From contig NC_047019.1 in NCBI RefSeq assembly GCF_902652985.1, forward strand, positions 25,730,001 to 25,794,000: a stretch of 64,000 bases of DNA, written 5' to 3'. Shown piece by piece: positions 926 to 57,127 of this stretch. Position numbers and translations under genes: made by a program. This DNA is from Pecten maximus. Taxonomy: Eukaryota. The notes beneath the pieces are model-generated. The model searched no databases. It saw nothing but the letters and a program-made list of their open reading frames with translations, and had not been told where the DNA came from. How positions within the stretch are numbered: the first letter of the stretch is position 1; the number at the start of each line of letters is the position of its first letter.

Positions 926-1317
926 ATGATATAACATGTATACGTCCCTATTGTCGTTTTACAATACACAGACCTTATGCCCCTCCCTATCTAATATTAA
1001 ACAAACGTCCGTCCTGCCGTCTTAAACCGTAGATACCTTATAATCTATTCTACCATCTTACACTATAGAGACACAAACGTCTGATATGTCCTCTACCATC
1101 TTTCATTGCAAAGCATAAAAGTCATCCAGCATCTCACACTATCAATACTTATTCGTCCCTATTACAATCTTACACTACAAAACGTCATGTTTTTCCTATC
1201 ATCCACAAAACCTGAATTCGTCCGTCTTACCATCTGCCTCTTTATCAACATTATATGTCTCTCACGTCATCTTACCAGCCTCCCAAAACACACATACGCA
1301 CTGAACACACGCATGCA

Positions 1318-18500: not shown

Positions 18501-21500
18501 ATTGATAAAACATTGTTTAAATGACTCCGCACAAATGTTCAAATATGACACCCGCGACGTCGGATGTCACAGCTAAATATTAGACTAATCACTGTCATAT
18601 TCAATTATCAGTCCGTTTCTGGAATTGGCAGGTGTGCTATCGTTGTTTATTGTGATGTTAAATGTTAATTCAAATATTGATTTATTTAAACACCGTGTAT
18701 TTCAACAAATATTTCGAAACAGTGCTTGAGGGCTGAACAATTTGACTATTTCACGAATGTAACTAACAGCATTAAATTGGAATTCAGTCATATATATAGC
18801 ATATACTGGACATGATGTTAGGGATCAAAGCCTGCAAATTCCATGGGGAAACTTTGGGTGATCAAATATGCATCAACAAATGGTTAATGTATGGAAGGTA
18901 ATGTCCCCTAGATACCCTAAATAATTTTCGATATTGGACAAAGAATAATCGTCCAATATTTTCACCAGGTCAAACATTAATATGTTTATCAAAATGAAAA
19001 GTATGTGCAAAGAATGTGTTTATGCATTCTGAAATTATCTAATGTCAATTAGCACCGTTATGATTAACTTTAAGGATGTGATAACAAACATCAAGTTGGT
19101 ATTTTATAGAATGGGCTTCCTTGGAAGTTTGTGAGTAATGCTGATATTGTAATGTAAAAGTAAGGAATTAACATACAAAGACACTGTCATCTTGAGAGTG
19201 TGTAAGGAGTAAACTACCCAGACGTACCTGGCACATATGATGCAGACTATGACAAAGATTATTAGGATCGCAGAAACGATGGACACGGGGACGATCACTT
19301 CAACTGAAACACAACGACATGATAAGTTCATACTGCGATAAGTTTTCGTCTGATGTTTATAATAAAATAATGAAATAAAAACAAATACAAATACCCTTTT
19401 TTTCCGAACAAAAAATAACTTCTGAAACTGATTTTTTAAACATGCTTACGTTTGTAGTTTTCGCCGTCCTGTCCTTGCTTTGACGTCATACTTGGTTTAG
19501 GTGATGTAAGTCCATCTGAGGGTGTCGCCGCCGTACTCGTTTTAGTCTGGACTGTTGTCGTGGTCAGTCGTTTAGTTGTTGTCGATTGTTTACTTGTTGT
19601 CATTGGTTTACCTGTTGTTTCAGTTATAGTTGTTGTCAAAAGTGAAGTCGTTGTTAATGGCTTAGATGTTGTCGATGGTTTAGTTGTTGTTGCAGAAGGA
19701 GTGGTTTTCAAGGGTGTAGTCGTTTTTAATGATGTAGTTGTTGTCAATGGTTTAGTTGTTGTCGATGCCCTAGTTGTTTTTGCAGTCGTTATTGTGGTTG
19801 ATTGTTGAGTTGTTTTCAATGGTTTTGTAGTTGTATTAATTGTCGTTGATGTACTTTGTTCTGTTGCTGTCGAAGGTTTATTTGTAGTGTTGGTTGTCGA
19901 TTGTTGAGTTGTGGTCGACGGCTGAGATGTTGTCAACGGTTTCGTTGTTGTCTTAGTCGTAGTCGTTGTCAATTGTTTTCCTGTTGTAGTTGGTTGTTTT
20001 ACAGTTGTTGTTAGTTGTGTGTTCGTCGTTTGTGTACTCAATGTTGTTTCCTGTTGAGTTGTTTGTTCTGTTGTTTTTGTTGTTGATGATGAACTAGATA
20101 CGGTGGTTGACTGTGAGGTTGATGTTGATAATGCCGAAGTTGTTGTCTGATTAGTTGGTGATTGCGTTACTGGTTTTGTTGTCGCTTCTGTTGAGGTTAG
20201 AGTAGATGTTATTGTAGTCGACGCGGTCGCTGTGCTTGATTCTGGTTCCTTTGTTGTTGTTGCCGCGGTGGTGGTGGCGGCAGCGGCGTCAGTAGTAGTA
20301 TTTCCGGTTGTGCTACCAGTTGGATCGCTGCATTTCATAGCTATATGACCATTCGCACCTGCAAAAGATGTTACTTAGAAACAATCACATCTGAAAACAT
20401 AAAACGTTATCGAATTGTATTTATAAACTGTGTATATTATGCATGTCGAAAACGAATCATAGGAGACGAAGCAAAACTATAATTGATTGTATCTAGTATT
20501 CGTATTTTTTCAATCCAGAGAAAAGATCCCGTAGTCGTGATGAAGAAGATTAAAAGGTTTATGAATAATCTTTCCTATGTGCTGCATTTTAAGTGAAGAT
20601 GTAATTGTATCTTTTGACTGGTTTGAAAACAAGTATGTACTGAAACACAACAATACTGTTTGAACAGGTAGCGTATTGTATGCATACTTTACTCTGTCCA
20701 TTATTTATAGAACGTACATGTATCAGAAAAGGATTGCTTGTTTCATAAGTAAATATATCATGTTGACGCTTCTCAAGTTATCCCTCGCGAGATATTGTAA
20801 AGTGTCGTTCCAATATGGCACGGCTACATACGTAACGATATCAATATATAAAATCCATACCTAGCGACAGGACCATGCAGTATCTGGTATCGAAAGGATT
20901 TGTCTCCATATGGAAGCTGACATCTATTGTATCCCCATTGTCTACAAGGATATTACCATTGATGTAGCACCTTTGGCTGACAGTGGTACTCCCTTTAGTT
21001 AGCACTAGGCGACTTCCACAGTTAGGATAGTTAGGTTGAAGGTCGACATGAGGGGAGAGAAAGATGTCTGAGGAGGCCACAGTATCCAGAGTAACAGTTG
21101 CTGTACAAAAACAAGTGGATGGTTTGGTCTGTCCCTCCGCCGTGTACGTGTCAATGATCACTCTCTTCCCTGATACTTCGGAGTTGGTGCACATGGAAGC
21201 CACTACGTAACATAAAGTATATCATATTTACACAGTTATATCATATATATTTACATTTGCTCCGCAATTCTCATTGACACAATGTTAAGAGGCAGTTACC
21301 ACCTTACGCCTGTAACACCCAGTGGGTCATGTGACATTTAAAAAGATTGTTTTCAGGTTTTTTAAAGTTGACAAAGATGGTAAGACTAAACAGTTGTTTA
21401 ATGTTGTTATATTCGATATAACAGCAAGATATATGGTAGGTAAATGCAGCATGGGAACCTGTGAGATTTCCCCACCATAGGTAGGGTTCCCATGCTGTAT

Positions 21501-24500
21501 TTGCCCACCATACATTAATTACAAACACTAATTAATTCCCCGACCAGTTAATATCAAAGGTCAGACTTTAAACAGTGTACTTACCTCTTGTTACTGATTA
21601 TATGAGTATAAACATAAAAATGGATGTTGATCATAAAGAAGCTATGACCATATGAAGCAATATAATTGTGTTTTAATGCATTTGCAAATCAAATGGATGA
21701 ATTTGATAAGTGTGTTGAAGTGCTATCTGGTACAGAATAAGTTTAATGTGTGTGGTAGATACTCATCATTACATGGAAATTTCATTCGTGATTCCATCAT
21801 CTCTATATATTTAGAATATCGTGTTCATACTGATAACAAAATTATCTATATCACAAACAATATCATCCCCTGTAAATAGTGATATTGCCTTAACACTAAA
21901 TTAAGACAACGGTAATCCAAATTTCTCATCATCCAGCCGTCACTAATCTGAATTCTACACTTCCAAAACAGACATTTTAACAGGATGTTATTAAAATTGT
22001 GCAATTTATTAAGCCATCTCAAACCGGATCATGGAGGCATGAAAGGTCCATTGTCAGAATCTTACCACTAATGTAGTCAGGACATGACCGGATTGGGGAG
22101 GATAAAATGTCAGAATATAATCTGGCATCTAACTACACATGTACGGGCGGAGACTATTCTTTTATAATCAAACTACTAGTGAAGAAACAATATGATTGGA
22201 TTACGGAGGTTCCAATGTCAGATTCTAATTACTGATGTAGGGATGACATCGCCGAATTACGTAATTACTGGTGTAGGGATGACATCGCCGAATTACGTAA
22301 CTACTGATGTAGAAACGATATAACGTGATTATAAAGGGTCCGGTGTTATAATTTATACATTGATGAGGAGACATTAAATATTGAGGTTAACCGGTCAGAT
22401 TCTAACAACTGATAGAGGGTAAACAAGGTCAGATTACGGAGAATCTGCTGTCAGACACTATAACCACTGACCAAGGGACAGCATCACCGGACTATGGAGG
22501 CTAACCGATCAGATACTAATAACTGATAGAGGGGAAAACAAGGCTGGATTACGAAGGCTCCACTGTTAGAATTTAATTACTGATGTAGGGACGATATGGC
22601 TGGATGGATTATGGCGTGTTCACAGTGTAAAACTGAAATGAGTGCCGATATACCGGAAGTTGCTGTAATGTTGTTGGTATGTATTTTTGCGATAGCCATG
22701 AAACAATATTGATTTATGCACAATTACAGATAGCTATATCCTGTTATACCCAGTACAAAATATTACTTCAATTATATATAATCGATAATACAGCGAGCAT
22801 TGGTTTGAAGGACAAATGGGTCAATATTGTATTTATACATTGAACAGCCAGACATGCAACAAGAGCCATTTCCATGTACAAGTAGTTAATATTGACAAAA
22901 ATATGAAGTGGTGACATACATAGAAAGAGTGACATTGGATCCCGTCACATACATTGCACCATCGGTAGTACACACCGTGCAGGCACCCTGCCCATCACCA
23001 ATACTAGTATAGCAGTATAGCATGCTTAGAATGCAATCAGAAAAGCAACTTAAGGCTATAAAGGGGAAGTTTTATAAATTGTACAATCTGTGACTATTTG
23101 GATACTAATTGACAGAAATTAAAAACAAAAATACCAAATACCATCGCAACTTAACCATGATCTTGTGAAATGCATCACTATTTTTGTGAACATATTACGT
23201 TTACCTTTAGGAATGGCTAAGGAAGAACAATACGGGTAAAATTAGGTCCGTTATAATGTAGATTACAATGAATCATTAATTGGATTGACATAACATTACA
23301 ATTAATAAACTGATTACAAATTACTGTTTTTCTTGTATCATTCATGCAATTCATACAGAAAATTCAAATATGCACATGTACACATGTCTCTGAAATTAAA
23401 TAACATTACTGGCAATTTACTTCCATTCTGTGACTAGTTTTTTTTACTTTATATTACCTCATCTAATGATATTTTTTCTCGTATATTTTCATTTCATTAT
23501 TTTCAACATAAAATGACAATCGTATCTATTTGACAATACAAAGTTCTTTATATTATTTATTGTACATATATAATATACCCATCAATGCAGAAAACATGCA
23601 ATGTTACTTACCTGGAATAAGACCCGAGGTGTCTGTAGAAATCTCTGCAAACTGAGCACATAACGTTTGTCCTTGTATATCTGTATGAAGGGAGAAACAC
23701 AGGTAAGTAAAGGAAAGTTATAGTGTAAACCATCACCGATATATTTACTTCCGGGCAAGTCATGTCCATACAAGACAAAAATGAATACCAATACCTTGTT
23801 TTCCTCAATAATAATTAATGATATGAAGCTCCAACGTGCTTCTTTATTTACCAACTTTGTCAACATTGCGAAATAAAATGATACAATGTAGTTGATGGTA
23901 AAATCTACGGAAGCTTAACGCCATATTTCTAGAGACTGTTGAAATTGAAACATCGCCAACAAAATAAAGTCTTCCCATGCTAACCAGTTAATGAAAAATA
24001 TGAAATGTAGAGATACTACTAAAAATAGTTGATAACATATTTACTACAAGCTGTTGATAGGAAATTGAAATCACTGAAGTGTAGACAACAAGTTTTTTAT
24101 CTATTGTTGTGGTAGGCGCATTTTATATACAATATTCAAAAACAAACCAATAATTCAGTGTTTTTATGAAATATTTAAAGGATATGTATCTTTATTGTAT
24201 TATAGACATACCCGTCTATAAAAACAAGGAAGCTTATTAGCCATGTAGCATTGCTAACTTCTATTGACTACCATTCCATTGTCTGAAATTACACGGTTGA
24301 TTGAATAAGAGTGAAAGTGAAACAGAGCATAGGACTAGGACTTACCTGTCCTCTCCTCGCGACATTTTAACGGGGCTTTGTGTTATAAGGGGCATTGTAA
24401 ATCCGTCCTAGCGATTCCATTGTACACGCAATAGTAGTGTCATATGATATACATCACAAAACACATGTCCCATTCAGTCAAATCTTTATGGAAAAGAAAG

Positions 24501-26135
24501 TTTGCAAAATCTAATAGACGAGTTTTCGATAACTCTGTTATCCAAATATTTGCACGAATTTATACGTTTCTTCTGGCAACTACAAGTTGTTCTCGACTTT
24601 CAAGTGTCAATATACATCAGCTAGTGTGAGCTATTGTCATGTTGCTCTTATGTAAATTGCATCTAGAGATTTATGTTTAGTTAGCTTCGACATAAAATTT
24701 AGTAGTGTCTGACACATAATCGTAGTCTAGAATTACACATTTTGTTGTACAAACAGTCTGATGTAAGTTCTTTTAGAACTATAGTGCACATCCCATTGTT
24801 AAATATATCTCAGGGTTTCGTGTAGATGGCCATTTAAAACACTTGAAAGATAGCAAAAGAAGATTATTATGAATTTTTGAAAAACGATACGACATAAACA
24901 TTATGTACACCATGCTAGATTTCATATATATGAATCTTTATTTCCCCTGGAGATGGGGCTTTTGCAATTTCTTGCTCAAACGCACAATTTAATTCAAATC
25001 AAAGGTGCTGATTTCAGACAACATCCCAGGTGTTAGTCTCGTAGGTCGATCCGAAATAGATTCGTTCTATATTCCCTTTTGACTTTCGTTCTCTAACTTG
25101 AATTATTTATACGATTTGTCGGTAATTGTTGCCATGTCTCCGGGAGGTAGTCTGACTAGGTTGGTGAGACCCTGAATCACCTACTCCCTGTCTACCTCTG
25201 GGTGTGTCATATGTTATTCCTTCAATAGACCGGTCGATATCACTATTTATTCTGTTAATAATTTAATTGTGTGAATCTCAATTTACCCAGAGATTTAGTA
25301 AAGACAGATGTTCCATCACATTGACGTGTTTTGGTAACATATGGTGAGTCCTGACATAATACGATTGTCATCATTTATATTATCAAGATCTAACATTTGA
25401 TATAATATAAAAGTATCACCGTTGATACTAGATTAAAAAAACGCGAGCAGAGTATTAACTATAGTCTGGGTATATCTTGATAATACACCTCTAACATGCG
25501 ACCTTCGATGTAAAAACAACAATGATTGCCACATAATAACCAAACCGTAATTTAAACTCAAAATCGAGTAATTGAGGGCAAACTATAACTAAAAAAAAGT
25601 TTGCCTGAAGACTCCACAAAAAGAAGAATATTGCAATAATATATAATTCATGTTTCCCTTTCTTGCCGGTGTATTCCCCAAGCAAGCATCAGGAACAGTT
25701 AAATTTGTTTATTTATTTCATTGTTTTCATTAAGCCTTGTATTTCATTCAGCAATGGAAACTTTAATATTAACCTGACGACTACTGATCTTACATTCTAT
25801 TTAACAATAATTTTACTAAATAGATATGGGTTGTTATAACAGTACTCGCTTGAAATGTGAACTAATAAAGTTAAAGTACATAGTAAGTACTTTTAAAAGC
25901 GATGCCATTTAATACAGACACCATTACCTAACAAATTCACCATGTTATTCATAAGTATCGATTAGTATATTAATAGATATTGATTAAATGGATGCATTTA
26001 TGAATTAATGTAAAGTGTTACAAACTGTTGTACTCTTATGTGTTGTGTCCTTGTAGTTGTGTTTGTGATTGGGTTGTGAAACTCACCTTCAAAAGTAAGT
26101 AGTACCACAGTAAATACGAAGATACAGGTATACAT
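15543..26135 (-). CDS. Receptor A: type-I membrane protein, about 567 aa (signal peptide, 8-Cys CUB-like domain, about 290-aa Thr-rich stalk, TM, tail with NPSY and C-terminal TSF). Exons 26135-26087, 23680-23612, 21202-20861, 20358-19450, 19303-19228, 15801-15543
   Basis: All introns GT..AG with consistent phases (1,1,1,1,2); exons sum to 1704 nt = 568 codons with no internal stop. N-terminus MYTCIFVFTVVLLTFEDIQG-QTLC is a signal peptide. TM is EVIVPVSIVSAILIIFVIVCIICA. The domain exon is homologous to B and C (MC..R..IDT..CxC..C.S.L..C..YC). Confidence 0.82.
16720..17242. repeat. About 39-40-bp minisatellite (ACAAGATAAGGTAGGGATTCTAATAGAGATCTTTTAAAACGC-like), about 13 copies, in the last intron of receptor A
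   Basis: Degenerate tandem array, visible directly. Confidence 0.85.
22025..22620. repeat. Old degenerate tandem repeat of about 58 bp (GGATTACGGAGG..TGTCAGATTCTAA.TACTGATGTAGGGAC) in intron 2 of receptor A
   Basis: Recurring GATTACGG, TGTCAGA and ACTGATGTAG blocks at roughly 58-bp spacing. Confidence 0.7.
24310..24323 (+). promoter_or_regulatory. ISRE/IRF-element-like motif AGTGAAAGTGAAAC in intron 1 of receptor A
   Basis: Matches the GAAANNGAAAC IRF consensus; motif only. Confidence 0.35.
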
Positions 26136-31680: not shown

Positions 31681-31852
31681 CTACAGAATTGCGATTAAAG
31701 TATCAGGTTTCCTTCTCTGTTTTTTTACGTTTCTTTCTCCCCAATCACTTAATAAACGATATAACTTGCGGCATGTCATTAACAAAACTACCACATTATT
31801 TTGAATATTCAATACTTTTACTCGGTTACCTAACATAGAGTTTACCGGTAGA

Positions 31853-34800
31853 TCAGACACCGGTATTCACTTCAGCATATACAACATTCCCCGAGTCTGC
31901 TTTCGGTTTTGGGCTTACGGGAGGTGGGCGTGACTTCACCCGTGACTGTGGGCGTGACGTTTCGTCCTGAGCACTCACTTCCGCGTACACTAAACCGTCC
32001 GCATTTCTATACCGAGACGGACGGTTGTCACCACTTTCATTACCGGTCTTTTCTTTTTTTGATTTGTTAACGACAGCATAAACATCTCCCTTCGGAGTTT
32101 CCTCTAGTTCCAATCTGTCAATTTCAGTGTCTTTTATTGTGGAATATTGATCTGACTTTCGCACCTGTGCGTACATATCGCCCGTTCCCGTGACTATGTG
32201 ACTGTCGTCCGGATCTCGGGGTCCGGCCGATTCATAGAGCGAGTTGTGAGTTATTGTGTCCCCGTCAGAGTTGACGTATTTCTTCATGGTTCCTGTGATA
32301 GCGTACGGTTGGATGTCACCGTCATAACCGTCATTCGTATTGCCGTTAGACGTGTTCCCACGGTCAACTGGCTGATGAATGTCTGGTTTTCTTCTCCTGT
32401 ACAAAAAAGTGATCTGTTAAAATCTTTTGTAAAATATGACACTTTCAAAGAAAAGCAATGTAACAACTTCAAAACTTCAAAACGCACATACAGTTAATTG
32501 TCAATAAAGCTAACAGTATAGTTGGACTGATAAGAAGATGTTCAAAATGCTTTTTAAAGCTCTAGTTAGACCACCACCTTGAGTATGCTGCAAGTGTTTA
32601 AAACCCATCAAAAGTAAAAGATATAGAACTCCTTGAAAATATGCAGAGAAGGGCAACAAAACTGATCCCTGGATTTAAAAATATCTCGTACCCGGAACAG
32701 CTACAACGGTTAAACCTCCCAACGCTACAACACCATAGGACCAGAGGAGATATGATTAACGTTTTTAAGATATTAAATAACATGTACGATAGTAGAATAA
32801 CAAAAATTTTTTTTTCCAAATGGACAATATGAGTAGAACCAGAGGTCACGATAAGAACATATCCAAAAGCGATGTCGTCTTGATGGAAGGACACATTTTT
32901 TTCAGTTACCGAGTTATTGATTTATGAAATAGCTTGCAACAAATTGTTGTCAATGCTGATTCTGTCATAAAATTTGAAATAATGTTAGATGGTCATTGGA
33001 AAATAACCGTTTTTATTCATGAATGTACAGGAACTAATATAAAACCATTAATTACACAGGAAATATTTTTATCATATGACTACCGTTATATACGGTGTCA
33101 TAAACCCATCACATAAATTTTCTTTATGACACTAGGTAATAACACCTTTCGCTACGCTGATTGGCTGGTTCCGTGAGAACTGTATTCATACGCGTGGGAA
33201 CGACCTACTTCTTTTTACTACGACTCGTAAAAATGGCGACTAGTGCTTGTAAACTTTGAAAAAAAATCAACTGAACGACAAATTGGTCTATTAACATAAC
33301 ATATTGTACAATCAAAGATAAAATCCAAGATGTAAACATCCTAAGTTTTTTAATTATATTTATACTATAAGATGTTAAATTAGGCCTGGCAAACATCTAT
33401 TTTATGACCCCTAGTAACATATTTCAACTCCGATAGAAAATTGCGGTTGCGTTGTCCGATGAGACATATCTAGTCTAGATTCTTTTCAAATAAACAAATA
33501 ATAACATTATTTAATAAAATCTTCATGAAAAACGGCAATGTAGTTTGTTACAACTTGCCTTCAACGGTTACTCAGAATAACATGCTGACACTGTCGTCGA
33601 CAAACACGTGTAATGTCAAAACAAACAACACTGCCAACAAATCGGCATCCAAAGTCGCTTTTCACGGCAGTCTGAACACAATGTTCAGTGGGAATATTCA
33701 CGGTGGAACATTTCACATCTCCAAAAACTCCCGCGAGGACGAGGATAAACACAAAGCAGTGAAAAGGCGCCGTACAATGGTTCTGTACGACAGCGACAGC
33801 GAATAGACATTTGTACAAGCCTCCATTATCGCGCCAAGTGACGTCACGGCTTCGTCACATCAAAAACAGTCGCTCATGAACTTTCAAACTAAAATATTTT
33901 CCTCATTGTTTCAAACACCAAGGACAATTTATCTATTATAGATTAAATGAAAAAATGCTGAAATTTTGTTTTGAGACGTTTATTTAATAAAATGAATCCT
34001 TTTCAAGAGTCAGTTGTGTTAGAACTATTTCTTCTCTCGTCGGTATAATTGACCTACTTCGAAGGTTCGGGTGATTTGGTTGAGATGTGACGATTCAAGG
34101 CAAAAGAAAAAATCAGTTTTTGATGGGGAACGATGAAAGAAAACTTCATATGATAAAAAGAAGCTGTCATTCGTTTCCCTTCATATTAGATTTATGATAC
34201 TCGTTTAGAATTTTTTATTTTTGCTCGCCAGAGGCTCGCAAAAATAAAAAATTCAAAACTCGTATCATAAATCTAATATGAAGGGAAACTCATGACAGAT
34301 CCTCTATATATTACACTATGTATTGATATGGATATGGATATGGATATAGAGGCTACAAGCCTGCGTCCATTATTTATGCTAATAAATGCTAATAAAAAAC
34401 ATGATATCACGAACTCAAAACATAGGAAAATATATTTAAACAAAATATAATACGTTGTTTTATATGCTAGCTATTAGAACATGAAATTTGGTTTGTACAC
34501 AAAACAACAAAATACATTCCATTTTGTAATTTACTTTCTGTTCATGTTTCTGCTGTATGGTAATATGCCTACCAGGCACCTGTCATTTTTGTTTACAAAT
34601 AACGGGCCTAGAGATAGGCATACAAAAAAAAATGGGTGAATTAACCAAGTAGACAGACGGATTTTTCCATTCATTTATTGCTTTAAACCTTACGGTTTAT
34701 CAGTACAAATATTTTCAGTAAATACATGACAAATATTTACATAAGATACACACAAATGGTACCTTACAAACACACAATGACCACACACACAGAGACTACA

Positions 34801-37800: not shown

Positions 37801-40800
37801 ATGCAAAAGAGAAATAACAAATAAATTGTAAATAGTATAACACAATGAGTTTTCATTTCTTATTCGAATTCATAGAGCGTGTCTTGGAGGTTTCATACAA
37901 TCTCATATGAAATGAAAACGGATTTCGGATACTTTCTATCTTATCACTCAGAAAACGTATTTTTGACAGCTTTTAAAAGTCAATGTGGAGATGACATGCC
38001 ATTGGCTACATTCCGACGTCACAATCGATTTCTGACGCAAAGATGTTGATGTACGAATTACCAACCTGCTGATGACGACACCAACGATGATAGCTATGAC
38101 GACCAGTAGGCCTCCACCGCCGGCTGTTCCGGCGATAATCCCAACTAAAAACAAAAACCAACAAACTGTGCCCATTGTTGCCAAATTATGGTATATTCTT
38201 TTATTATTATCATATTTCACTTTTTGAATGAATAACGTCAATAAGCAAGTAATGGCTCATATTGGTGACTCGGACAGTTTTACTGGGATTGGTGAGCTCA
38301 CTATAAAGTAACACAAAACAACTCCAAAATAATCACTAGGATTTTCTAGGTAGCTGTAACATAGTATATTTTCATTCTCTATATACATATTTACATATGT
38401 TGATATACCTTACTTTTCATGTTCGCACTCTCGATTAGAATTTTTGAATTTAGTTTGTGTTATATATATATATCGATCTCGAGGTTTGCGAGTTTGGGAG
38501 CTTAAAACAACGTTATATCTCCCTAATCAATTTTCGGGGTCACATTTACGATGAATTCTAGTTACGAAATTCCACTCCTCTCTAAATGACTTGTACGAAG
38601 TCAAACGTCCCAAGTACGCATGGTGCTATATAGTCACCATACTAAGTAAAGTATATTTATAACTATAGAATCAGTCAACCATAAATCTACTGCAGAAATT
38701 AAAATCTTAAGTATTTGGAACTATTAATAAAACTCTATGCATGATCATATTGTATGATTCGAGTAGACTTCATCAAGAGGCAAGTATAAGACTGTAAAAG
38801 TATAAGGTAGTTAAAGAAATTCAGGGTAGAAATACAATTTGGTTAGCAATGATTTCGACCGATGGTACCGTAGGACACAGTACAACTTGTAATCAATACT
38901 TACTGTCTGCGTCTAAATTTTTAGCGTTTTTTCCTGTTTCTCCCATCGTTGAAGACACTGCAACAACATCACCAGTAGTCAAATCTGTTGATAAGGTTGT
39001 CATCAGTTTGGTAGACGTAAATGGTGGTTTTTCTGTTGTCGTCATCTTTGTTGTTGTTGTTGTTGTTGGTGGTGGTGGTGTTGGTGGTGATGTTGGTGGT
39101 GTGGAAGTACTTTTTGTTGACGCACTGGTGGAAACTGTCGAGGGTTTGTCAGACGTAACACTATTTTTATTACAGTTAACCGTGATTTCCAGAGAACTGC
39201 TGATGTCTTTGGAAGAGAAAATTACAAAAAGATAGCAAGCTAGTATAACCAATACATTTGTAATTTTGCGACTTAAAGAATTGCATTTAATAACCGAATT
39301 ATCTAAATATGAAATTAAAACAAGAGGCAAAGGGCCACGTAGTTCTCTGGGCTTGGTATTAGTATTTAATTTATTGTTGTCAATTTTCTTGCATTTGATA
39401 ATTATATTTTGTTTAACCAACTGATCATGATTGTCCTTTCAGTTCTTTGTATATCATCTCATTTTCGTCCTGTACAGAATCGGAATTAATTAGTTTTAAG
39501 GCCATATTGTTTTATCTGAAAACAAACCAAACAAGCTCAGCTCCAGTATACTGGCTGGTATGTGTCTGTCAACGCTGGGGCAGAGTAAGGGGAGAGTTTA
39601 GGTCACTAGCTCTATTGTGATTAATACTGAGCGTAATCTGGCATTTAATAGGTTTTTAGGTGGCATGAGAGAGGGAGACAATGATGTTTTGGTCAGCTGG
39701 TGTTTTCTATGTACATTTTATGGAGTCTCTGATTTGGTGAACATAGTACAAGTTTTGATGTTCTGATTAGGAGTTGTTGATGTACGCACTCTGGTGAATG
39801 TGAATATGTACTAAATGTCTGTAAATAAACTGTAAATAGTTTATTAACATTTGTTTGTGGTTTGAACCCCGTCACAATATTTTGAACAAACCTTGATATT
39901 TCATATATTGCCATTTATCAACCATGAACATCTGGTTTCGACAGATTATACTTTACATTCTTGCATGATATCTGTTGATTTGCACATTTAACTGATATTT
40001 CCCATGACAATACTAGGAACTAAATAATGATTAAAAGTATATATATCTCCTGTTATATTTCACTCACAACTTGTAGTAAACACATATTACAACACAAATA
40101 TTGTATACAAATTATACTATGTTATGCCCCAAAACATTTTTATTTTTCATGTATCTTTCAAGTTATGCTTTCTTTCTAAGTTTGATGCATTTATTCTGAT
40201 GCAGATTATATGGAGTATTCGTAGTATGGAACTAGACAATGTAATGTGTGATACTGATTATATGTGAACCACATACAATAAATTTGCTATTTAAAACTTT
40301 ATGTCACATACATTATATAATTGCTATATATAACTTTAGGTATTTTATTTTCATTAATTCTTCAATTAAATCTTATCATTTGATGATATAAAGCAATGCA
40401 TTTGTATGTAACAAGACAGGGGTATTTGTCCACACTACACTGTAGACCACAGACACACGTGTGTGTTTCCCCTTCAGTGTAAACTATACCTTAGGGAGCA
40501 GTGGTTGAAGCCCTGCCTGGACAAAATTAATTGATACTGTCAATAGTCCAGATAACACCAACATACACAAATTGCACTGAATCTCGGCCTAACGATGCCG
40601 CCTAGTGGGATGTATAGCTCGTATTACACCGTTGTTACTAAAAAATAGACATTAAAACTTAATTTTTCTTAAAATTAAAATTTCTTAAATTAAAAAAATT
40701 CCAGTTGATATCGAATATTGTGATTGTTATCAACACAGCAACTTCACAATACCTATAATCTGGTATCACAACATACAGCCATGAATGCACAGTTAGGCTA

Positions 40801-42876
40801 AAAATATGTTTAAAAGGTGCAAAGCAGCAATTTTTTCGACCGCTGACTATAGTTCTCGGGGCTATAAATAGCCCCAGAGAACCAAAAACACTTCAGTTGC
40901 TTACCTGGCGAAATTAAAATACAATGTCCTGACTTCCATTGTGTACCATTTTCTGCCCTGGTCAACGTCAGCGTCAACATGTCTGCTGTCCCGAAATTGT
41001 CCACCGACGTAGCAGGGATCGGGCTACAACCGGTCTCGGTAAAACCAGCAGATGTAGTGGAGGTGATACGAAGTTTACTTGCACAGTTAAGATCTGTTTC
41101 TACTCCCGGATATTCCTGTACTGTCACTGTTGTTGTACGTGATATTTTCGTATTCAGTGTAACGGTACATGTACAACTGTATATCCCCGGGCCTCCCGTA
41201 CCCCAGGTGTCTATTACCATACGTGTGTTATATAGTATCGCCTCCTTGACACATAGTCATAACTACAATTGCAAACAAGAAATAAATATAATACATTTAA
41301 TTCAATACCATTCCCGACAAATAGTAATTACACTCTACTGTGAATTTGATCCTGCCTTAAAATTCCTGTAATTTCTTAAACATAGGCAGCAAATTATATT
41401 AAATTATTCGTTCTCAATTGTTCTGTTCTAAAACATGTTGAAACTCTTATCATTATTTGTGATATTTTTCCTTGTCTGATTGTTTTTAATTCCAGATAGG
41501 TTTGTTAACGGAAACCTAATCTCCTGGTTCCAGATTCATCAATTCACGGTAAAAAAAATAGTTATGAACCTTAATGCGTTCCTATGGAAAATGTTAAGCT
41601 AAGAATGTTATTACGTTAAAGAACGTTAATGAAACTGGAGCCAGATAATAATAGCATACCGTGATTAAAATTTTCTAGCTTAGTCTGATCCGTACATGGC
41701 GTTGTAATGATCCCTGTAATAGATACTTTACATCAACATTGATATAGAATAATAATTTTGATCTACATTGAATGTAAAGTAGCATGAAATGAAATAGAAA
41801 GTTGGTGTAATTGTTATCCATACACATGGACTGCATTTATATAGGAACGCAGTCAGTACATTAAAATAGAGCACCATTTAACATGCAAAACAAAGCTAAA
41901 CAAATAAATGTAAAAATTGTTAATAAAACTCGAGCGGAAAGTATAAACAAAAACATGGTTAACATGTTGGTGGTTTTTTTATGAGGATAATAAAACGAGA
42001 TATTCCGGAAGGGTAATCGTAACCCTCGCAGCTCACATCCTCAAAGCTAATCTAGGATAATAGATTATTTTCAGGTGAAATCATGACGACCATTGACCTC
42101 TTGCTCACTCTCTTTAAAATCATATTTCTAAGCGTCTTTCTTAGCAGTCGACATCTTTTACGAGGAATAGTGATAGTTAGGACTGGTTTTAGAATTTTAT
42201 AACATAAATACATAATAGCGCATAAAACGATATCCTCGTACGTATACGAAAGGGAAAATTGAAATAGATTTCAGTGTGATGAAAGAGGTGCATGTTAAAC
42301 TACATTACCAATACCAATATTGGTGTCAAATCACACCGAGTGAGTCATTGGTAATTTTCATCAGAAATTACACATTCACATATCATAACTGTATTAAAAA
42401 ATCCAATGACATGATTATTTTTTTTATTTATTTTCATTGTTTATATTGTTTGACAGATAATACCACACACGTAACGTGGAACCTAAAATAAAACATGTTG
42501 AGCCTTGTAAATAAACAAATACAACTAATCGCTGAACACCCAGACAATACTTTCATGTGTTATAATCGTACAGATCACGCTGCAATAGTATGTTATTAAC
42601 ATAGATTTTATTCGGCGTGAATATTAGAATACTAGTATATACCTCCTCATTATTTACAGCTTCAAACATGTAACATGGCATCATGTACTATATTTAATAG
42701 TAATAATAGTTATCAACATCTTAACTTTGTCACACAATAATTTGATCAGTAGTGTCAGTGAAATCGCCTTTGATATTTACTTCCGCATCAGAGTTACCTG
42801 TAACACACACGCTGAGAAGTAACCACACAGACGTAATTACTGTCAGTACGCTGAGCTTGTCCTCCCTGCCTCTCAT
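31853..42876 (-). CDS. Receptor B: ITIM-bearing type-I membrane protein, about 471 aa if one +1 frameshift in exon 3 is corrected (possible pseudogene). Exons 42876-42798, 41713-41660, 41262-40905, 39206-38904, 38144-38066, 32396-31853
   Basis: Signal MRGREDKLSVLTVITSVWLLLSVCVT; 8-Cys domain; Thr/Pro stalk; TM GIIAGTAGGGGLLVVIAIIVGVVIS; tail with DMYAQV, DVYAVV, LVYAEV and VVYAEV. Exon sizes 79/54/358/303/79/544 compare with 79/55/357/222/79/514 in paralog C. Confidence 0.82.
32525..33050 (+). mobile_element. CR1/L2-type LINE 3' fragment; its tail resumes at about 34310-34400 after a nested insertion
   Basis: LVRP.LEYAASV, then ENMQRRATKLIPGFKNISYPEQLQRLNLPTLQHHRTRGDMINVFKIL, characteristic of the CR1 ORF2 C-terminus. 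A tandem ATGCTAATAA tail lies near 34376-34396. Confidence 0.85.
33058..34309 (+). mobile_element. Internally deleted Crypton-like element nested in the CR1
   Basis: Flanked by a 7-bp direct repeat ATTACAC (33051-33057, 34310-34316). Subterminal inverted repeat TTTTTATCATATGA / TCATATGATAAAAA. Long 3' hairpin at 34164-34298. Relic ORF 33525-33806 (MFSGNIHGGTFHI..KRRR..DSDSE) resembles C-termini of Crypton tyrosine-recombinase proteins; family assignment is from recall. Confidence 0.6.
34850..35120 (-). mobile_element. 3' fragment of a non-LTR retrotransposon (RTE-X-like C-terminal Cys/His motif)
   Basis: RLSSHKLNIETGRY..NRMCTYCDSGDVEDAYHFIVKC. Confidence 0.75.
35121..35563. repeat. Three near-identical tandem copies of a 147-bp unit
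   Basis: TTGACATTTG recurs at 35147, 35294 and 35441. Confidence 0.95.
36760..37730. repeat. 22-bp minisatellite (ACATCTGTTTAACCTGTACCCT)n with a homogeneous 54-bp higher-order core at about 36880-37140
   Basis: Visible directly; the core gives the 18-aa periodic ORFs at 36864 and 36875. Confidence 0.95.
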
Positions 42877-44463: not shown

Positions 44464-44464
44464 T

Positions 44465-44555
<91 letters not shown>
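44464..44555. repeat. (CT)n microsatellite
   Basis: Pure dinucleotide run of about 90 bp. Confidence 0.99.
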
Positions 44556-44558
<3 letters not shown>

Positions 44559-44799
44559 GAGTAAATATAACACTTCGATTTACATCATTATCTTTACATA
44601 TAAATAACAAGTTTTAGTACATTTTTTAGAACAAGGCACTCTGAACCTCAGTAATATCAGCATTGCACTTTGCTGTTGATTTTTATTTTTCATCATTGTA
44701 AATCGTTCGATAAATTATCATACATTAACATATAATAACATCATTACTTTTATAATATTTAGTTATACCAGTAATTTTATCTAATAGTTCTTAAAATAT

Positions 44800-49310: not shown

Positions 49311-51164
49311 GAATCGTGTGGTTTGTTATTTTTCATATCCATTGTCAATTACATGTAATACCGATAAGTATAAGGAGTAAAATATATATACTTAAAAGTT
49401 ATAGCGATGACGTTATTCCCCTAGACATAAGACATTTACGTCGGATTCAGAGGTCAGTCTCCTTTCTGCTGGTCCGGACGGGGGATAAATCGATTTATAA
49501 ACACTACAAGGGTTGCTCATGAAATATGTATAAGGAGGGGCAATTAAGAAAGTTGAGCGATTTCATCAAAAGTTGTTTTATATCTATATTCCATCATCAT
49601 CAGATTTCCAAGTTGTACAGCATAAGATGGTACGTTCGGTTGTTGTATCTATAACGTAGGTACATACATGTAAAGCGATACAATGTATAGGGCCAGTGTT
49701 CACTTATCTATATTTACATGTGCGTGTCTTGATATTTATCAGCTATTTGCACATTGAAATTCGATTCCAAATTCGCAATGTGTTGAAATCAAAATTTGGT
49801 TTCTTTTCAATTCGTTTTGAACAGACTATATTTATCGACAAAAAAACTAGCTGGTTAACAATTCAATTTATACGGCATTGTACACCAACTGGTGTACAGG
49901 TAAATTATCGTCTTTCTAAGCTGTTGTTATGTTTTCATGTCTACATGTTTACATTAATTGTGTATGATAATACATACAGTGATCGGTTTCCGTTTTAGTC
50001 AACTTTCAGACCTGTACAGATAATCACCAGAACACGTGTCGTGTTACTTGTGTCCTTCGAATGATTGATTAACTTAATTGGTATGTGTGAAATTTTCCCA
50101 AAATGAACTGGATAGGGGCGATTATCGGCGACCAGTTAGCTCAATGGTAGCGCTTCCGGTAAGTGCTCGGAGGTCCACTTATGCATTTTCCCATTCCTCT
50201 TACATATTTATGTGTATTAGTTTAGTTTATTCATATCTACACATTTTCATGGATATGATTTGGTACTGGTCCCTCAGTCAAAGAATCGCAACATTGCTTC
50301 ACTACATGTCATGAAGTTTTTTACCGCAATTTCGATAGAGCCCACCAAGGATACAATATTATAGGCGTTTATCGTCCTCGGACCAGTGTTGACAACGAAA
50401 ATCAATGAGACAAAAGCAGTTAAAAACACACAGAAAGAGAGCACATACAAGAAGACAGGACAGGGCAGTACAGAAAGAATGATATTAAGATCCAAAGTGT
50501 TACAATCCGGGCAGCAGGCCAGTTCGGGTCTTTTCAAAACAAAGCAGAGGAGGGCGCATTCAGGAAAGAAAGAAACGACAGTAAAACAATTATGGTATAA
50601 AGTATGGAAAGCCGTATGGGACCCCGGACTTTCCACAACCCAACTGTAAAGCTGAGAGTAGATCAATTTCGGTATTTTCAGTGTTACGGAAGTAAAAGCC
50701 TGCAGGGTCTCGCTTTCAGTCAATTCATTAAAAGGATACGAAGGTATTGGCCGTCTTATCCGCCTATTTCGAGACACGTGTACAATAACAAATGATCTGA
50801 AAGTAAACAGAAACGGAACTTTAAAAAGTGTCCGGTGACCGGGAAATTAAAACTAGCTTTAGAATGTAATAATGGTTTAATTAAAAACAGTGAACCACTC
50901 TGTCGTCTGTGAAAATTTCGTTCATGTTAGTCTAGTTCACTAGTCCAGGTTGGTGTCGCCTCTCCCCGATAGAAGATTTATGGGACGAGTTGGACAAACG
51001 AATATGACGTAGGCCGAACCCTCTAATCAATGTCGTCGAGAAATCGTAACATGCATTTAAGTGTTCAACACAGATGCTGAATGTGTGCAAGATTTGTTTC
51101 TACCACAATACGCCGTGTTATTCCACTCTCAAGCCATTGTATAAATGTGTCGACTGTTGGATAA

Positions 51165-51562
51165 ATATATGTTATATACCACTAGTGGTATATCACCTTC
51201 CGGTCTTTTGATTGGTCAAGAATTTGAACTTTTACTCAAGCTGCAATTGTTATTGACGTCATCAATAATTGAATGATGTCACATCACCGGGTTCCGGACG
51301 TCACAGGTACACTTTATTTGCATACGCGAAATTATACTTGGCCACGTTTCCCTTTGATTCAAGCCGATATTATTGTGGTAGAAACAGGTCACACGATTCG
51401 TGATTGTTGGATATGGAATTTATTTCACACTCGTAAGTTATTTTTTAAAAGTTGCAAAAGACACTCGCTAAAGCTCGTGTCTTTTATAACATTTAAAAAA
51501 TAACTTACTCGTGTGGAATACATTCCATATTCAACAATCACCACGTTGTGTAACCTCTATTT
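51165..51562 (+). mobile_element. Short non-autonomous element of the same hairpin class as 33058-34309 (Crypton-like)
   Basis: 5' palindrome TATACCACTAGTGGTATA, a GATTGG box, and a long 3' imperfect hairpin (about 51390-51552) with CTCG bulges ending in CCTCTAT. Confidence 0.55.
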
Positions 51563-53381
51563 ATCTCTCAGAACGGACTTATACTGGGCATCAAACTATT
51601 CACCAAAATCACCATACCTTATACCTTTACATATTCAGCCGATGTAGCCGCTTTGTCCTGGTACCGCTTTGTTTCATTGATCGAAGCTTTTGGTATTTTT
51701 TTTCCATTTCTCCACAATTATTAATTTCCTAAAGAAACGTATAACTTATAATATTTCCAGAGTACATATGTATTTATTTCTTTTGTAACAGATCAATACA
51801 AGCGTTGATTTACATTTTATGTTGAGGAATGTCAAATTTTTCGTTCAATTTTATCTTCCTATTTTACAAAAACAAATTACACAAAAAACAAAACCAAAAT
51901 CATGACTAATTTATTGAAACGGTAAAACATAGCATTATTATATATTAAGTCAAATAATAAAGCTATATAGTTTGGCAAGATGAAATAAGTAATAATGCTA
52001 TATGCAGATACTTGTTTATATCCGAACAAAATATAGACCGTTGTTTTTTTATTTTTTTTTTTTTAAGATAGGCATATATTCTATATAACTCCTGCAGTAT
52101 ACGTGTTTGGTAATTAACGACAAAAAAGTAAAACAATTACACTGATCAGGCAAAGGCACTCAGGGTTTGTCAACTTCAGTAGGTGTGCAAATGTTATATT
52201 TGATATAAGAAAAGTGCTAACCATTGAGAATGTCAGCTTATTTTATCTACAATATTTGCCTGTTGTAATATATTTCACAATACATTATTTATCCACGCTC
52301 GACTTTTTATAATTACATAATCACAACATGGAATCAAATAGAACAGAAACAAGACAGCATTTCTGATGTCAAAGACTACAAAGGGGAAATAAGCAGGATT
52401 TCATGACAGAATGTCACTGCAGCTGTAACACACAATCAGACCTACACTTAGAATGACATATCATACACATTGTATATTTTAAGATAATGGATAATATATT
52501 TAATTATTTACGAAAGAAGCTTTCGCTTTCGTTTTTAACGAAAGCAACATAACTTTGATAGCATTTACTGCTAATACTTAGTGCACAGTCTATTTAATGG
52601 TAAGTGGAGTAGGTGGATTAGACGTGAATTGGAAGTAAGAAAACAATTGATGTTAAACATAATGAAATACTTATCGTGTTTATAATTAAAGATATAATTA
52701 CATAAAAATTAATATAGCTATCAATACAAGATTAACAATTCAACACAACTGTAGCACCACCATATTTAAGCTACTAAGACAGTATTTGATATGTTTCAAA
52801 TGTCATTTAACACGTCTGTAGCTAAATATGAATTAACATTTACAAAACCATATTAACAAACCTGAAAAAGGCTTCTGATGATCATCGCAATATAAGATTA
52901 TAATAACCGACAAACAAACGTATACACATATACACAACAGGTTTGCGGGTTGTTCTTGCATAACATCCTAGCAACAAATCAAGTGACATTTAAGGAAGGT
53001 ATCCAATTGATTGGGACCGCTTTATAGCGACAATATCATGATGGAGGTACATTGACATGACATATCCCAAGTTATACTGACAACAGAATAAGTTAGACAT
53101 GTTCCTTTGTACAGCCCCTTTAAAGCTAATCGTCGACCACTTTTAATGACTTTTGTATGTCATAGCTCTAGCCTGTTTCACAGGAGAAAACACTTAAATC
53201 AGGAATTAGCTGAATTTTGGCGCCTATAACGAATCATAAAAACAAAAACTACAATTATTAAGAAAATTCAGAAAAACAATATCAAATAAATTACGTCATT
53301 TGTTTTAGACTATATTTATGTTATTTCGGACCGGGATTCCTAAATAACAGAACACTACTCTGTAGTACAATATTAGTGGAG

Positions 53382-56300
53382 TTATACTCCTCCGTCAGTG
53401 TTAACTTCCGAATATATTACTCTGTCAGCGTCAGGTTTTGGTTTAGGCCTGACTGGAGGACGAGACTTGGGACGAGATGTATCATCTATCTCCGCGTACA
53501 CTAAACCTTCCTGGTTTTTATATCGAGAGGGCCGTCTATCCTCATCCGTTTGTGATTCATCGTTCCTGTCGTCTGACTGTTTCCCTGGCTTATTTACAAC
53601 GGCATATACGTCGCCAGAGGGAGCTGTCACTGCATGTCCTCGTGTTGAACTGTTTGAATGTTCTGTCTCAGAATTTTCATTTGTTGCTGGCTTCTGGACC
53701 TGCGCATACATATCGCCAGTCTCTGTGACAATATGGTTATTATCCGGAACGCGTGGTCCCGCCGATATGTAGAGAGAATTTTGAGTTAGTGTGTCTGAAC
53801 CTTCGTCATGATAAAATTTTGGTGTTGCGACAGCATAGGGTTGGATGTCCACAGAGAAATTTTCCTCGGGGTTCTTCGCATCTGAACGTTTTTTCCTATT
53901 AAGAATAAAGTATTAAGTACATGTATAAACAATTTCAAATCACCGATCCACGTTTAAATATTTACGTATCGTCAACGTCTTTGTCGTATTTTGAACTGTT
54001 GTGTTATCGTGTTCGTTTAAGTTCGTACGTGTTAGATTTCTAAACAGTTTATTATGAAGCACACTATACAATTGTATAATTATGGTAATAAGCTATGCAA
54101 TTATTTCATTTCATAATCATATCTGTAGATTACACTATATATATAGCACTGGGTTGTTCTGATTTTGATATCAATACATCTGTAACGTTACATCTGAAAT
54201 TATCTGCCTTATTATCCAGTAAGTAGACCAATGACTATACTATTAATACTACAATGCCGCTAAGGGCGATGCCTTTACATGTAATTATCTAATCATTGCT
54301 ACAATAACGATAATAAAGACGATGGATATTTACTTACTACTACAATGATAAGGACAATGACTACAATTATCTTATTGTTATTACATTGAAGATGATAACA
54401 ACAATAACTATACGTACATTTTTATTATTATAATGACGATGATAAAGACGATGACTTCACTTACCTCAGTACTATAACAATGACGATGATAAGGACTTGA
54501 CTGCATTTACCTTATTATTATTTCAATGAAAAAGATAAGGACGACGAATAGCATTAGAGCAATGACTACTTACCTAATTATTACTACAATGACGATGATA
54601 AGGACGATGAGTAAAACTGCACCACCGCCGGCTGCTCCAGCAATAATCTCCACTAAAACAGATACTAGTACAATACAAACACTGGCACCTCAACATACGG
54701 TACAGCATGCTCAACATATTGAAACAAACACGAGTGTTATTTACAAATACATTGTAGGCCTAGTTATCGCGTTCATGTATTTACTGAATCACAAAGGTTT
54801 CACTATTTGCGTGCACTAAGTAAGTTTGGACATTTTCTTAGCTGTCATGTTTACGTATATCGTAGCTTTAAATATAATTTAAGTAGGAACAGGACTATCA
54901 TGTGTGTTATGTGGAAATGTTTCTAAGATCCGTGTACCTATAAAAACAGATATCACTTACCTCCTATTGACGACTCCTTTAATTCTCCGTTGTTAACATC
55001 ACCATTACCTTTACCCAATGTACGATTGGTAATGGTCTGTATGGAACTGGAGCCGGTAGTGATCGACGTCGTCGTCGGTGTCGTCGTTGTTGCTGTTGTC
55101 GCCGTCTTTGTCGTCGTCACAGAAGTCGACGGAGAGCTGTCTGATCCGCGCGGTGCATCACAAGTTACATTTAAAGTAACATCTATCAAAGAATGGTTAC
55201 CGTGTTACGTGAAGTGTTAACGCAAGTGCGGGAAACAATGAAAATCTTATTAAGAATCAGTGTATAGTTCAGGTCGTATAATAGTATTTGTCACACTACA
55301 CTGAAGCTCAAGAGAAAATTGAATGTTTAGATGATTAGTTACCAAGTACGTAGATTACATAACCTCGAAACGATTGTCATTAAGCCTTGATCTGACAAAA
55401 TAAATGCGTTCTTGTTCACAATAAATATAATCTGACATGAGTAGCTCGGCTGGGTCATGTATGTGCGGCTAGTTCTTTTTGTTTTGATTTTGTTTTTTAT
55501 CAGCAAAAGCCGTATTGATAGATTAAAAGATGCATTATTTGATGTGAAACTTTTTATGCATATCTAGTTCTGTGTGGAACTGTGTGTCTTACCAAGAGGT
55601 ATTGCCTTACTATGTATACCCAAGTTTGAACAAATACGGTTAATAAATGATATGAAATTGAAACAGAATTACAACAGAAACTTGCATTACATATGGAATA
55701 TCGAAATATGGAGTATTTTAACATATCAAATAACTCAATATATACATTTATATTGCATGTGTATTTACTGGTAAAACTCGTTAAAACCTAATCTTACTGA
55801 TTGATGTTAGCTCTATATTATGTTATCCGAGGCGACGTGCGAAGGTCAACATATCACCAAAAGACGTCATACTACTATTATTAATTATTACTTACCTGAT
55901 TTAATGAAGATACAGTACCCGGATTGCCACGGGATGTTGTCATCTGATCTGGTTAACGCAATATTGTAAACCTCGTTGATTGTAAAGTTTGTGATGATGT
56001 CCCCACTAATTTGCTGACATTGATATTCTGTAAATGTATTTACAGGAAGCCTGGTAAATCTTAGTTTACTTTTACAATCAGACGCCGGCACTGTATCAGG
56101 ATAAGCATTGATGTCGAAGCGGACGGGAATCGTATGAGCCACAGTCAGTCTAACTGTACACTGACAACTGATGTGTCCTAACCCTCCTGTGTCGTACGTA
56201 TCAACCACCACACGGCCAGCAGTTAAAGTCCCACTCCTACACATCGGTACCACTGTAAGGTCAAATACATCTCATTAAAATGTACCAATATTGATAATAT

Positions 56301-57127
56301 GATGTTAAGTTAGGGTTTTAATGCTATAGCAGATTCACTTTTTTTATTCTAACGTGAATAAGAGAACAAGAACACAGTTGCAATGGATATTTTAGAGGAT
56401 TTTTTATATACGACCTTAGCTGAACACCATCATTATATTAAATTCTTAAGGTTGTTTACCTCCATCACATTTATCAACGGTATATCTTGATACATATTTG
56501 TTTAACAGTGAAAGGTATTGTAATGAAATCATACTCATGATTTTGCAATCAATTATTTATATATGAATTTGGGTGTTATTTATCAAATGTAAAGAAAATA
56601 TAGATCAGACCCAAATACAGTAAATATAAAGAGATCGTTGGGAGAGTATGATACCGTTTGTGAAGCCGTCCTGGTCAGCTTCTATCAGTGCATATTGTTG
56701 ATTTGATACCTGGAAATTGATGTATAGAAACAGTTTAGAGAAGTACTTGACTCTCTGAAAAGTAAGTATTTTGAAGTACATGTAGCATGTTCGATTAACA
56801 AAACTCTTTTGATTTAACATATCACTAGTACATATATATAACCAGAAAACAGGTCAATGACCCTGAAATTATACGTAACCCTACTGGTGTGGACCGTTAC
56901 AAACCCGTTCAATGTGTTATTACTTCCTGTATTGACTAATCTGAGCCTTCTGAAAAAAAAACATTGAGCACAAATTTACGATCTCAGTATGACGTTTCAT
57001 TTAAATACATTACATTTTCAGAATACTTCCTGTTTACAGAAGACCTACCATGATAATGGAAACAGACCAGTATCAATAGCAGCAGACCAATAGATGATGT
57101 CTTTACCTTGATGGCAATGCGACACAT
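53382..57127 (-). CDS. Receptor C: ITIM-bearing paralog of B, about 434 aa if one +1 frameshift in exon 2 is corrected (416 aa if exon 2 is skipped). Exons 57127-57049, 56709-56655, 56252-55896, 55182-54961, 54652-54574, 53895-53382
   Basis: Signal MCRIAIKVKTSSIGLLLLILVCFHYH; the domain exon aligns without gaps to B; TM EIIAGAAGGGAVLLIVLIIVIVVII; tail with DMYAQV, DVYAVVNKP, LVYAEI and VIYSEV. GT..AG introns with the same phases as A and B. Confidence 0.84.
54230..54610 (-). repeat. Degenerate tandem repeat of about 45 bp built from the 3' end of receptor C's TM exon plus its splice donor
   Basis: Minus strand repeats GTCCTTATCATCGTCATTGTAGTAATAATTAG|GTAAGT-like units, with extra AG|GTAA donors near 54510 and 54464. 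Confidence 0.8.

Follow-up and report, generated by a model that had tools for sequence, protein, structure and literature searches.

Paired receptors are known mainly from the Ig and C-type lectin families, according to the passages of PMC13358205 that treat them, and the Siglec and PILR systems described there combine near-identical ectodomains with differing tails, the long one carrying inhibitory motifs of the immunoreceptor tyrosine-based type (ITIMs), and show conversion that does not go beyond the outer domain. Among invertebrates the nearest counterpart is Alr of Hydractinia, which the relevant part of 10.1101/2022.03.04.482883 presents as single-pass proteins with domains of known fold that are invisible to profiles, with invariant cysteines, and with tails bearing either ITIMs or activation motifs of the immunoreceptor tyrosine-based type (ITAMs). 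Among bivalves, passages on oyster Ig receptors report coupling of the CgNCAM1 ITIM to a phosphatase, SHIP2, in haemocytes (PMC11841013). Here we consider three genes, A, B and C, in a 64,000-nucleotide stretch of the scallop Pecten maximus (contig NC_047019.1, positions 25,730,001 to 25,794,000; called the window below), each of which encodes an eight-cysteine ectodomain, in the case of B and C with a frameshift in this assembly. Our reading, to which we give a probability of roughly 0.5, is that all three are single-pass surface proteins with a CUB-like domain on a mucin stalk, and that B and C would be the inhibitory halves of converted pairs with short-tailed, possibly activating partners.

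The scallop family shares its architectural traits with Alr as described in that part of the source, and differs from it in having single CUB-like domains on mucin stalks instead of Ig and Fn3-like domains, and in that a role in allorecognition has been shown for Alr. It shares with oyster CgNCAM1 and CgIgIT2 the character of bivalve single-pass receptors with tyrosine motifs, but the oyster proteins have Ig ectodomains, and a converted partner is not described for them in the passages concerned (PMC11841013, PMC11999971). It differs from Siglec and PILR in its CUB-like scaffold, in the distance of about 2.2 Mb between partners, and in that the putative activating member has an ITAM-spaced motif of its own and would not depend on DAP12. 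PILR is itself a single domain on a stalk. Relative to CUB (Pfam PF00431; spermadhesins, MASP/C1r/C1s CUB2, Kremen1, neuropilin, TSG-6), the predicted eight-strand jelly-roll core superposes and the cysteine spacing is collinear in a non-significant alignment, but the scallop family has no Pfam match above the cut-off, no SPNYP motif, no Trp and none of the calcium-site acids, has four extra cysteines, adds a helix and a strand on separate exons, and carries an Asp and a CGS motif of its own. Searches of open-access text exclusive of supplements turned up no description of the family or of paired receptors with a CUB scaffold, and no mention of six identifiers of family genes or proteins; expression tables may list these genes. 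Paired tails and probable exon-limited conversion in a CUB variant are new here, and were absent from a preliminary description of this locus.

The window genes have one common layout, all on the minus strand: a signal exon, a micro-exon with Cys1, an exon of 342–358 nt with six cysteines, an exon that opens with Cys8 and runs on into the Thr/Ser stalk, and one exon each for the transmembrane segment and the tail, exons 2–4 being bordered by phase-1 introns. In gene A, whose mature ectodomain has exactly eight cysteines, 5/5 predicted junctions are present as GT..AG joints; the contigs and runs behind this and all other splice joints are RNA by guess.

26087..26135, minus strand: gene A exon 1, likely signal peptide (joint 23680/26087 in contigs)
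23612..23680, minus strand: gene A micro-exon with Cys1 (TLC), 69 nt, phase 1-1 (both joints in contigs)
20861..21202, minus strand: gene A exon 3, CUB-like core with Cys2–Cys7 (joints in contigs; structure model; fold search)
19450..20358, minus strand: gene A exon 4, the final strand, which holds Cys8 (MKC), followed by a Thr/Ser mucin stalk of ~290 amino acids (joints in contigs)
19228..19303, minus strand: gene A transmembrane exon (joints in contigs)
15543..15801, minus strand: gene A tail exon, with one Tyr and neither ITIM nor ITAM (joints in contigs)
42798..42876, minus strand: gene B exon 1, likely signal peptide (resembles the N-terminus of P0006)
41660..41713, minus strand: gene B micro-exon with Cys1 (TPC), 54 nt (sequence prediction)
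40905..41262, minus strand: gene B exon 3, CUB-like core, 358 nt, with a +1 frameshift near its 5' end (86% identity to L006 exon 3)
38904..39206, minus strand: gene B exon 4, mucin stalk preceded by Cys8 (VNC) (sequence prediction)
38066..38144, minus strand: gene B transmembrane exon (sequence prediction)
31853..32396, minus strand: gene B tail exon, with ITIM-consensus LVYAEV and VVYAEV, also YAQV and YAVV (NCBI model P0005)
57049..57127, minus strand: gene C exon 1, likely signal peptide (sequence prediction)
56655..56709, minus strand: gene C micro-exon with Cys1 (TIC), 55 nt, with a +1 frameshift and an in-exon stop (sequence prediction; paralog comparison)
55896..56252, minus strand: gene C exon 3, CUB-like core (88–92% identity to exon 3 of L002, L003 and L004)
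54961..55182, minus strand: gene C exon 4, mucin stalk preceded by Cys8 (VTC) (sequence prediction)
54574..54652, minus strand: gene C transmembrane exon (joint 53894/54573 in one run)
53382..53895, minus strand: gene C tail exon, with ITIM-consensus LVYAEI and VIYSEV, also YAQV and YAVV (the same joint)

The cysteine motifs of the micro-exons and of the mucin exons (the latter running down from 20358 in A, 39206 in B and 55182 in C) are found where the preliminary description had put them. A second TLC, at 21285, was considered as the gene A micro-exon and rejected, being flanked by stops; the spliced TLC is at 23666. The tail of A may have an extra cassette exon at 18001–18059 (minus strand), as one contig (X12) joins the transmembrane exon to 18058 and apparently continues into the tail exon.

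B- and C-type ectodomains recur about 2.2 Mb away on C5 and on two unplaced contigs, there with a different transmembrane exon. Amino acid identity of the ectodomains is 81–87% between C and these short-tail genes and 77% between B and L006, with tails at 15–27%. The DNA likeness of C to L002, L003 and L004 is confined to exon 3 and ~20 flanking bases: exon 3 is 88–92% identical and exon 2 67–72%, and the introns lie within 1 point of the shuffle maximum in 9/9 comparisons. B and L006 are 86% identical in exon 3 and at shuffle level in the introns. Duplicates used as a control (L003/L004) are 89–91% identical in all five regions. Synonymous divergence (dS) in exon 3 is only 0.10–0.20, with a ratio of nonsynonymous to synonymous divergence (dN/dS) of 0.55–0.75; synonymous sites are therefore homogenised too, which argues against purifying selection on an old duplicate.

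Informative ectodomain sites group the genes by species (12:0:0 and 14:0:0), and approximately unbiased (AU) tests reject grouping of the ectodomains by tail type (p 2e-5 to 1e-3), the groups in both comparisons having been named after the identity matrix was seen. The species clades have support of 94/99 and 77/84, not starred. The tails, by contrast, group by orthology, with B–P0006 at 68% and C–P0010 at 63% versus B–C at 53%, and the species-wise grouping of ectodomains repeats in an independent genome. A third ectodomain type behaves similarly: P0128, with three ITIMs, and P0129, with a strict ITAM, are 74% alike, compared with 62% for two ITIM-tailed genes of different species. The locus tags of P0128 and P0129 are near-adjacent; B and C lie about 2.2 Mb from their partner cluster. 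All told, each of three ectodomain types is found with a long ITIM tail in some genes and with a short tail in others. Other scallops also have long-tailed counterparts whose ectodomain type is that of the window genes: P0006 and P0010 are intact, and P0009 is short at its N-terminus. Exon 3 has probably been kept alike by gene conversion. Judged from sequence comparison, the combination of exon-limited identity, low dS and grouping by species is the gene-conversion signature of paired receptors, on a scaffold that appears CUB-like.

The tails of B and C are ~170–180 amino acids long and have two ITIM-consensus motifs each, as motif matches only, the ITIM and ITAM consensus being those given in a passage of PMC13358205. 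P0006, P0009 and P0010 also have two each. Across 39 family tails, which are related and not independent sequences, there are 25 ITIM motifs, compared with 9.8 in shuffles, and 0/1000 shuffles reach 25. The short tails are ~55 amino acids long; L002 and L004 carry YDSL-x10-YEEI, and L006 one YDSL plus YVN. The strict pattern Yxx[L/I]x6-12Yxx[L/I] is present in L002, L004, P0007, P0012, P0129 and P0033 and absent from L006 and P0003.

These observations suggest a candidate mechanism. In the ectodomain, exon 3 would supply a CUB core of eight strands, the micro-exon a helix and the mucin exon an extra strand, and ligand binding would lead to phosphorylation of the tail tyrosines. The long tails of B and C would then recruit SHP/SHIP-type phosphatases and dampen the response, and the YDSL-x10-YEEI short tail would recruit a Syk-type kinase and activate it. 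The shared exon 3 would keep the ligand specificity of the partners matched, such that a microbe or non-self cell exploiting the inhibitory receptor would also trigger the activating one. Opposite immune signalling by the long and short tails has at best an even chance. The most specific form of the proposal is tentative: that scallops have activating/inhibitory pairs of their own whose scaffold is a CUB variant with four disulfides and no calcium, and that ITIM and ITAM genes have repeatedly exchanged copies of the ligand-binding exon. If true, molluscs would use converted receptor pairs to set activation against inhibition, as is known mainly for Ig and C-type lectin receptors, and the family would supply concrete bivalve candidates for the sensing of microbes or of self and non-self.

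Several points weigh against this reading. A strict ITAM occurs in 4/38 tails, one of them within a low-complexity repeat, and 19/38 lack both kinds of motif. In the short tail, the first tyrosine (VHYDSL) fits the ITIM consensus as well. The partner of B, L006, is without the second ITAM half, and the tail exon of L003 was not found, a stretch of N following its transmembrane exon. The contigs that carry L002 and L004 are small and unplaced, and L002 resembles an allele of L003. Finally, both ITIM genes of the window, B and C, are broken in this assembly.

Some of these same observations bear on a second explanation, which accepts a divergent CUB and conversion of exon 3 but places the role in adhesion, gamete recognition or neuronal self-recognition, the tyrosines being sorting or generic SH2 sites and not opposing immune switches. 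In its favor, gene A is among the proteins with neither motif, and YxxPhi motifs are found in 35/39 tails. Such motifs also serve endocytosis. The best structural matches, described below, are moreover spermadhesins, which are carbohydrate-binding CUBs according to a passage of PMC10850435. The recurrence of three ectodomain types on both kinds of tail speaks against it, as this is the arrangement of paired receptors in the passages of PMC13358205. We regard this explanation as less likely. For A, an adhesive or structural role as an older family member without ITIM or ITAM is more likely; in a FastTree tree it groups with members from oysters and a mussel (support 0.89). B and C belong to a FastTree clade whose named members are all scallops.

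A fourth gene, at 59241–63159 on the plus strand and head-to-head with C, has a mucin exon (59241–59690), a 79-nt transmembrane exon (62369–62447) sharing 67% identity with that of the short-tail type, and a tail in which YESL-x10-YDVV, YENM and YTEL occur. The family profile finds no family domain near it, and it may be a domain-less signalling member.

The eight-cysteine pattern itself is real. Of the 105 proteins fetched, 17 were excluded as truncated, redundant, unrelated or bearing LDL-receptor class A modules. Cys3 to Cys7 are present in 90/90 aligned relatives and Cys2 in 89/90, these columns being partly selected by the search profile; Cys1 and Cys8, which lie outside the profile, are present at the expected span in 27/27 and 26/27 full-length relatives. 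Searched with the profile, 1.84 billion representatives yielded 99 matches at E≤0.001. Among 30 proteins looked up the taxon is known for 25, of which 23 are bivalves (scallops, oysters, a mussel, Dreissena and Mya) and two are repeat proteins. The latter, a moth protein whose label we take to be "cystatin-like" and a nemertean cubilin-like protein, reach the threshold by summing weak repeats and were counted neither way. Word-index protein searches with exon A and with a 58-member alignment gave no match. Two protein searches of the scallop's own genome gave 13 matches each, of 15 candidates scored, and the family profile finds at least 18 copies of exon 3 in the fetched genome stretches, a count that may include alleles. 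Two of these copies are broken, B and L011 (G000:C5:11554146-11554340), the latter by an in-frame stop. From its sequence distribution the domain is a bivalve-wide family. The preliminary description had called it unnamed, which is nearly so: in UniRef one member goes by the automatic name "CUB domain-containing protein", and two more are called "Ig-like". An unnamed, mostly rotifer atlas cluster with a feature score of 0.89 is a possible relative outside the molluscs, as a lead only. Two Dreissena proteins, P0120 and P0083, have LDL-receptor class A modules after the Cys7 strand. In P0120 these sit between the Cys7 and Cys8 strands, at the exon 3/4 boundary, so that the last strand would be separable from the core.

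The fold was addressed with a model of P0003, an intact scallop relative, built on the 90-sequence alignment. Predicted local distance difference test (pLDDT) values exceed 90 over most of residues 31–180, and the model consists of a helix with Cys1, the strands of exon 3 and one more strand with Cys8. A VIA-align wide search puts CUB domains in the top 14/50 rows (Z 7.4–8.5; root-mean-square deviation 2.5–3.3 A over 99–108 residues), and a second structure search puts them in the top 22/50, with Z up to 8.8 for spermadhesins; across both searches CUB rows span Z 7.2–8.8, with the same deviation over ~100–109 residues. Rows for Kremen, neuropilin, cubilin and Neto2 were presumed to be CUB where their titles are silent. 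The predicted model is a jelly-roll with CUB strand order, and other jelly-rolls score ~1–1.5 Z lower. In most CUB rows the matched range is about residues 48–168, from Cys2 to the end of exon 3, which makes the Cys1 helix and the Cys8 strand additions to the CUB core. Atlas neighbours that have a family are mostly CUB clusters, at 0.81–0.88, as leads only. On the strength of this model the family domain very probably folds like CUB.

The structural ranking bears out the CUB-like fold that the preliminary description had guessed at, and its expectation that standard CUB profiles may miss the domain was correct. A CUB-family match above the curated Pfam cut-off is found in 0/3 of the window exons and in none of the relatives, the best being PF23667 at E 6.3e-4 in 1/15 and 1/58 members; with all 90 members, no CUB family is among the 25 of 54 families listed. 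A sequence search of the PDB returned one non-significant row (E 0.53) and a second search none. In hhalign comparisons with CUB, P is 0.035–0.05, not above shuffled, reversed or repeat controls. Of the CUB core signature (G-x-I-x-S-P-N-Y-P, C-x-W and G-F-x-x-x-Y), Trp is found at the +2 position in 0/90 members, with V, A, I or L there instead, SPNYP is absent, and the last aromatic alone is kept (Y/H/F, 90/90). The family has marks of its own in an Asp (89/90) and a CGS motif. The cbCUB signature is given as Tyr-Glu-Asp-Asp in the relevant passage of PMC10850435; by a column matching taken from a weak alignment, the corresponding family columns are S/T (0% acidic) or ≤16% acidic, and canonical CUB controls have Asp at the calcium acid columns in 12/15 and 8/15. 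The domain is thus predicted to be a calcium-free CUB variant, one that folds like CUB yet is not recognized as CUB by sequence. Even without an immune role, this defines a bivalve-wide CUB variant that is missed by Pfam and inconsistently auto-named.

The alternative is an independent jelly-roll, GOLD-, PPC- or SID-1-like, whose likeness to CUB is superficial. The absence of a significant sequence or profile link to CUB, and of its motif, Trp and acidic calcium site, would fit such an origin, and a number of results count against the CUB assignment directly. P0003 is a relative and not a product of the window. Foldseek, with which the CUB call was also checked, found nothing at E≤0.001 for either of the two models, and its top rows (root-mean-square deviation 8–19 A) were set aside. 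A profile-profile check likewise failed to lend support, the score against CUB being 14.0, compared with block shuffles of mean 11.9 and maximum 19.1, a reversed profile at 18.9 and a repeat control at 14.6. GOLD domains reach Z 7.1–7.3, within ~1.5 of the best CUB. A model of gene A exon 3 alone is an eight-strand jelly-roll (pLDDT 75) that does not single out CUB, its match to a CUB (meteorin, Z 7.7) being tied by those to SID-1 (also 7.7), to viral jelly-rolls and to a collagen-binding domain (8.0). Nevertheless, the better model ranks CUB first in both searches; GOLD matches begin 6–8 residues later, and those to CUB begin at family Cys2. Four family cysteines (Cys2/4/5/6) also fall on the four CUB cysteines in a collinear global alignment, itself non-significant. 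An independent jelly-roll therefore seems improbable.

Under the CUB assignment, the weak CUB alignments, the location of Cys7 and the core aromatic on opposite faces, and the hydrophobicity of both faces of the strand before Cys7 lead us to infer disulfides 2–4, 5–6, 1–7 and 3–8. Cys2–Cys4 and Cys5–Cys6 would be the two canonical CUB disulfides. Cys1, 3, 7 and 8 would tie on the added helix and strand, with 1–7 and 3–8 as our best guess. The earlier idea of CxC in place of CxW finds no support in that form: three alignments, all non-significant, put the second Cys of CxC on CUB Cys2 and the extra Cys ahead of it, with the aliphatic residues mentioned above at the Trp position.

The eight-cysteine domain reads through in 1/3 window genes. 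The preliminary description had assigned an eight-cysteine ectodomain to all three; that of A is intact, and it had overlooked that exon 3 of B and exon 2 of C are frameshifted. All motifs of its six-cysteine exon (MC-x8-R..DT) are in place, in a single frame in A and C only. Exon 3 of B (358 nt) has one base too many, with a stop seven codons past MC, and exon 2 of C (55 nt) has one base too many, with a stop soon past TIC; in their closest paralogs exon 3 is in frame and exon 2 is 54 nt. That B and C are pseudogenes in decay, or copies scrambled by the assembly, their exon-3 identity passive or artefactual, is very improbable, for although each has its frameshift, the NCBI models (P0001, P0005) bypass the breaks and have no signal peptide, and there is no intact cluster member for either, their long-tail counterparts persist in other scallops, the last junction of C is spliced in one run, and the species grouping is seen again in an independent genome.

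The two frameshifts in this assembly are either null alleles or consensus errors. Neither site is among the 12/77 indel rows listed. The alignment of one contig (X10) ends at 56682, two letters short of the contig end and next to the extra base of C, which fits a different allele of C; X10 and X11 look like a single data set. At 41206, near the B frameshift, the contig depth listed for X1 and X4 consists entirely of a base that differs from that of the window, possibly a local consensus error or another haplotype. In two scallop species, NCBI isoform pairs (P0124/P0022 and P0130/P0044) differ by the 17-amino-acid Cys1 micro-exon. Because skipping of the micro-exon keeps the frame, C could still yield a seven-cysteine product.

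Elsewhere in the window, an intronless open reading frame (ORF) of 704 amino acids at 7463–9577 (minus strand) matches Mab-21 and Mab-21_C above the cut-off, with a weak TPR match, and is presumably a cGAS-like receptor candidate. An ORF at 455–934 (plus strand) consists of tandem SSYTTD(P/L/H)P repeats and is mucin-like or a minisatellite. Between B and C, at ~50920–51570, very high contig depth in DNA runs and one run guessed to be RNA marks a high-copy short repeat.

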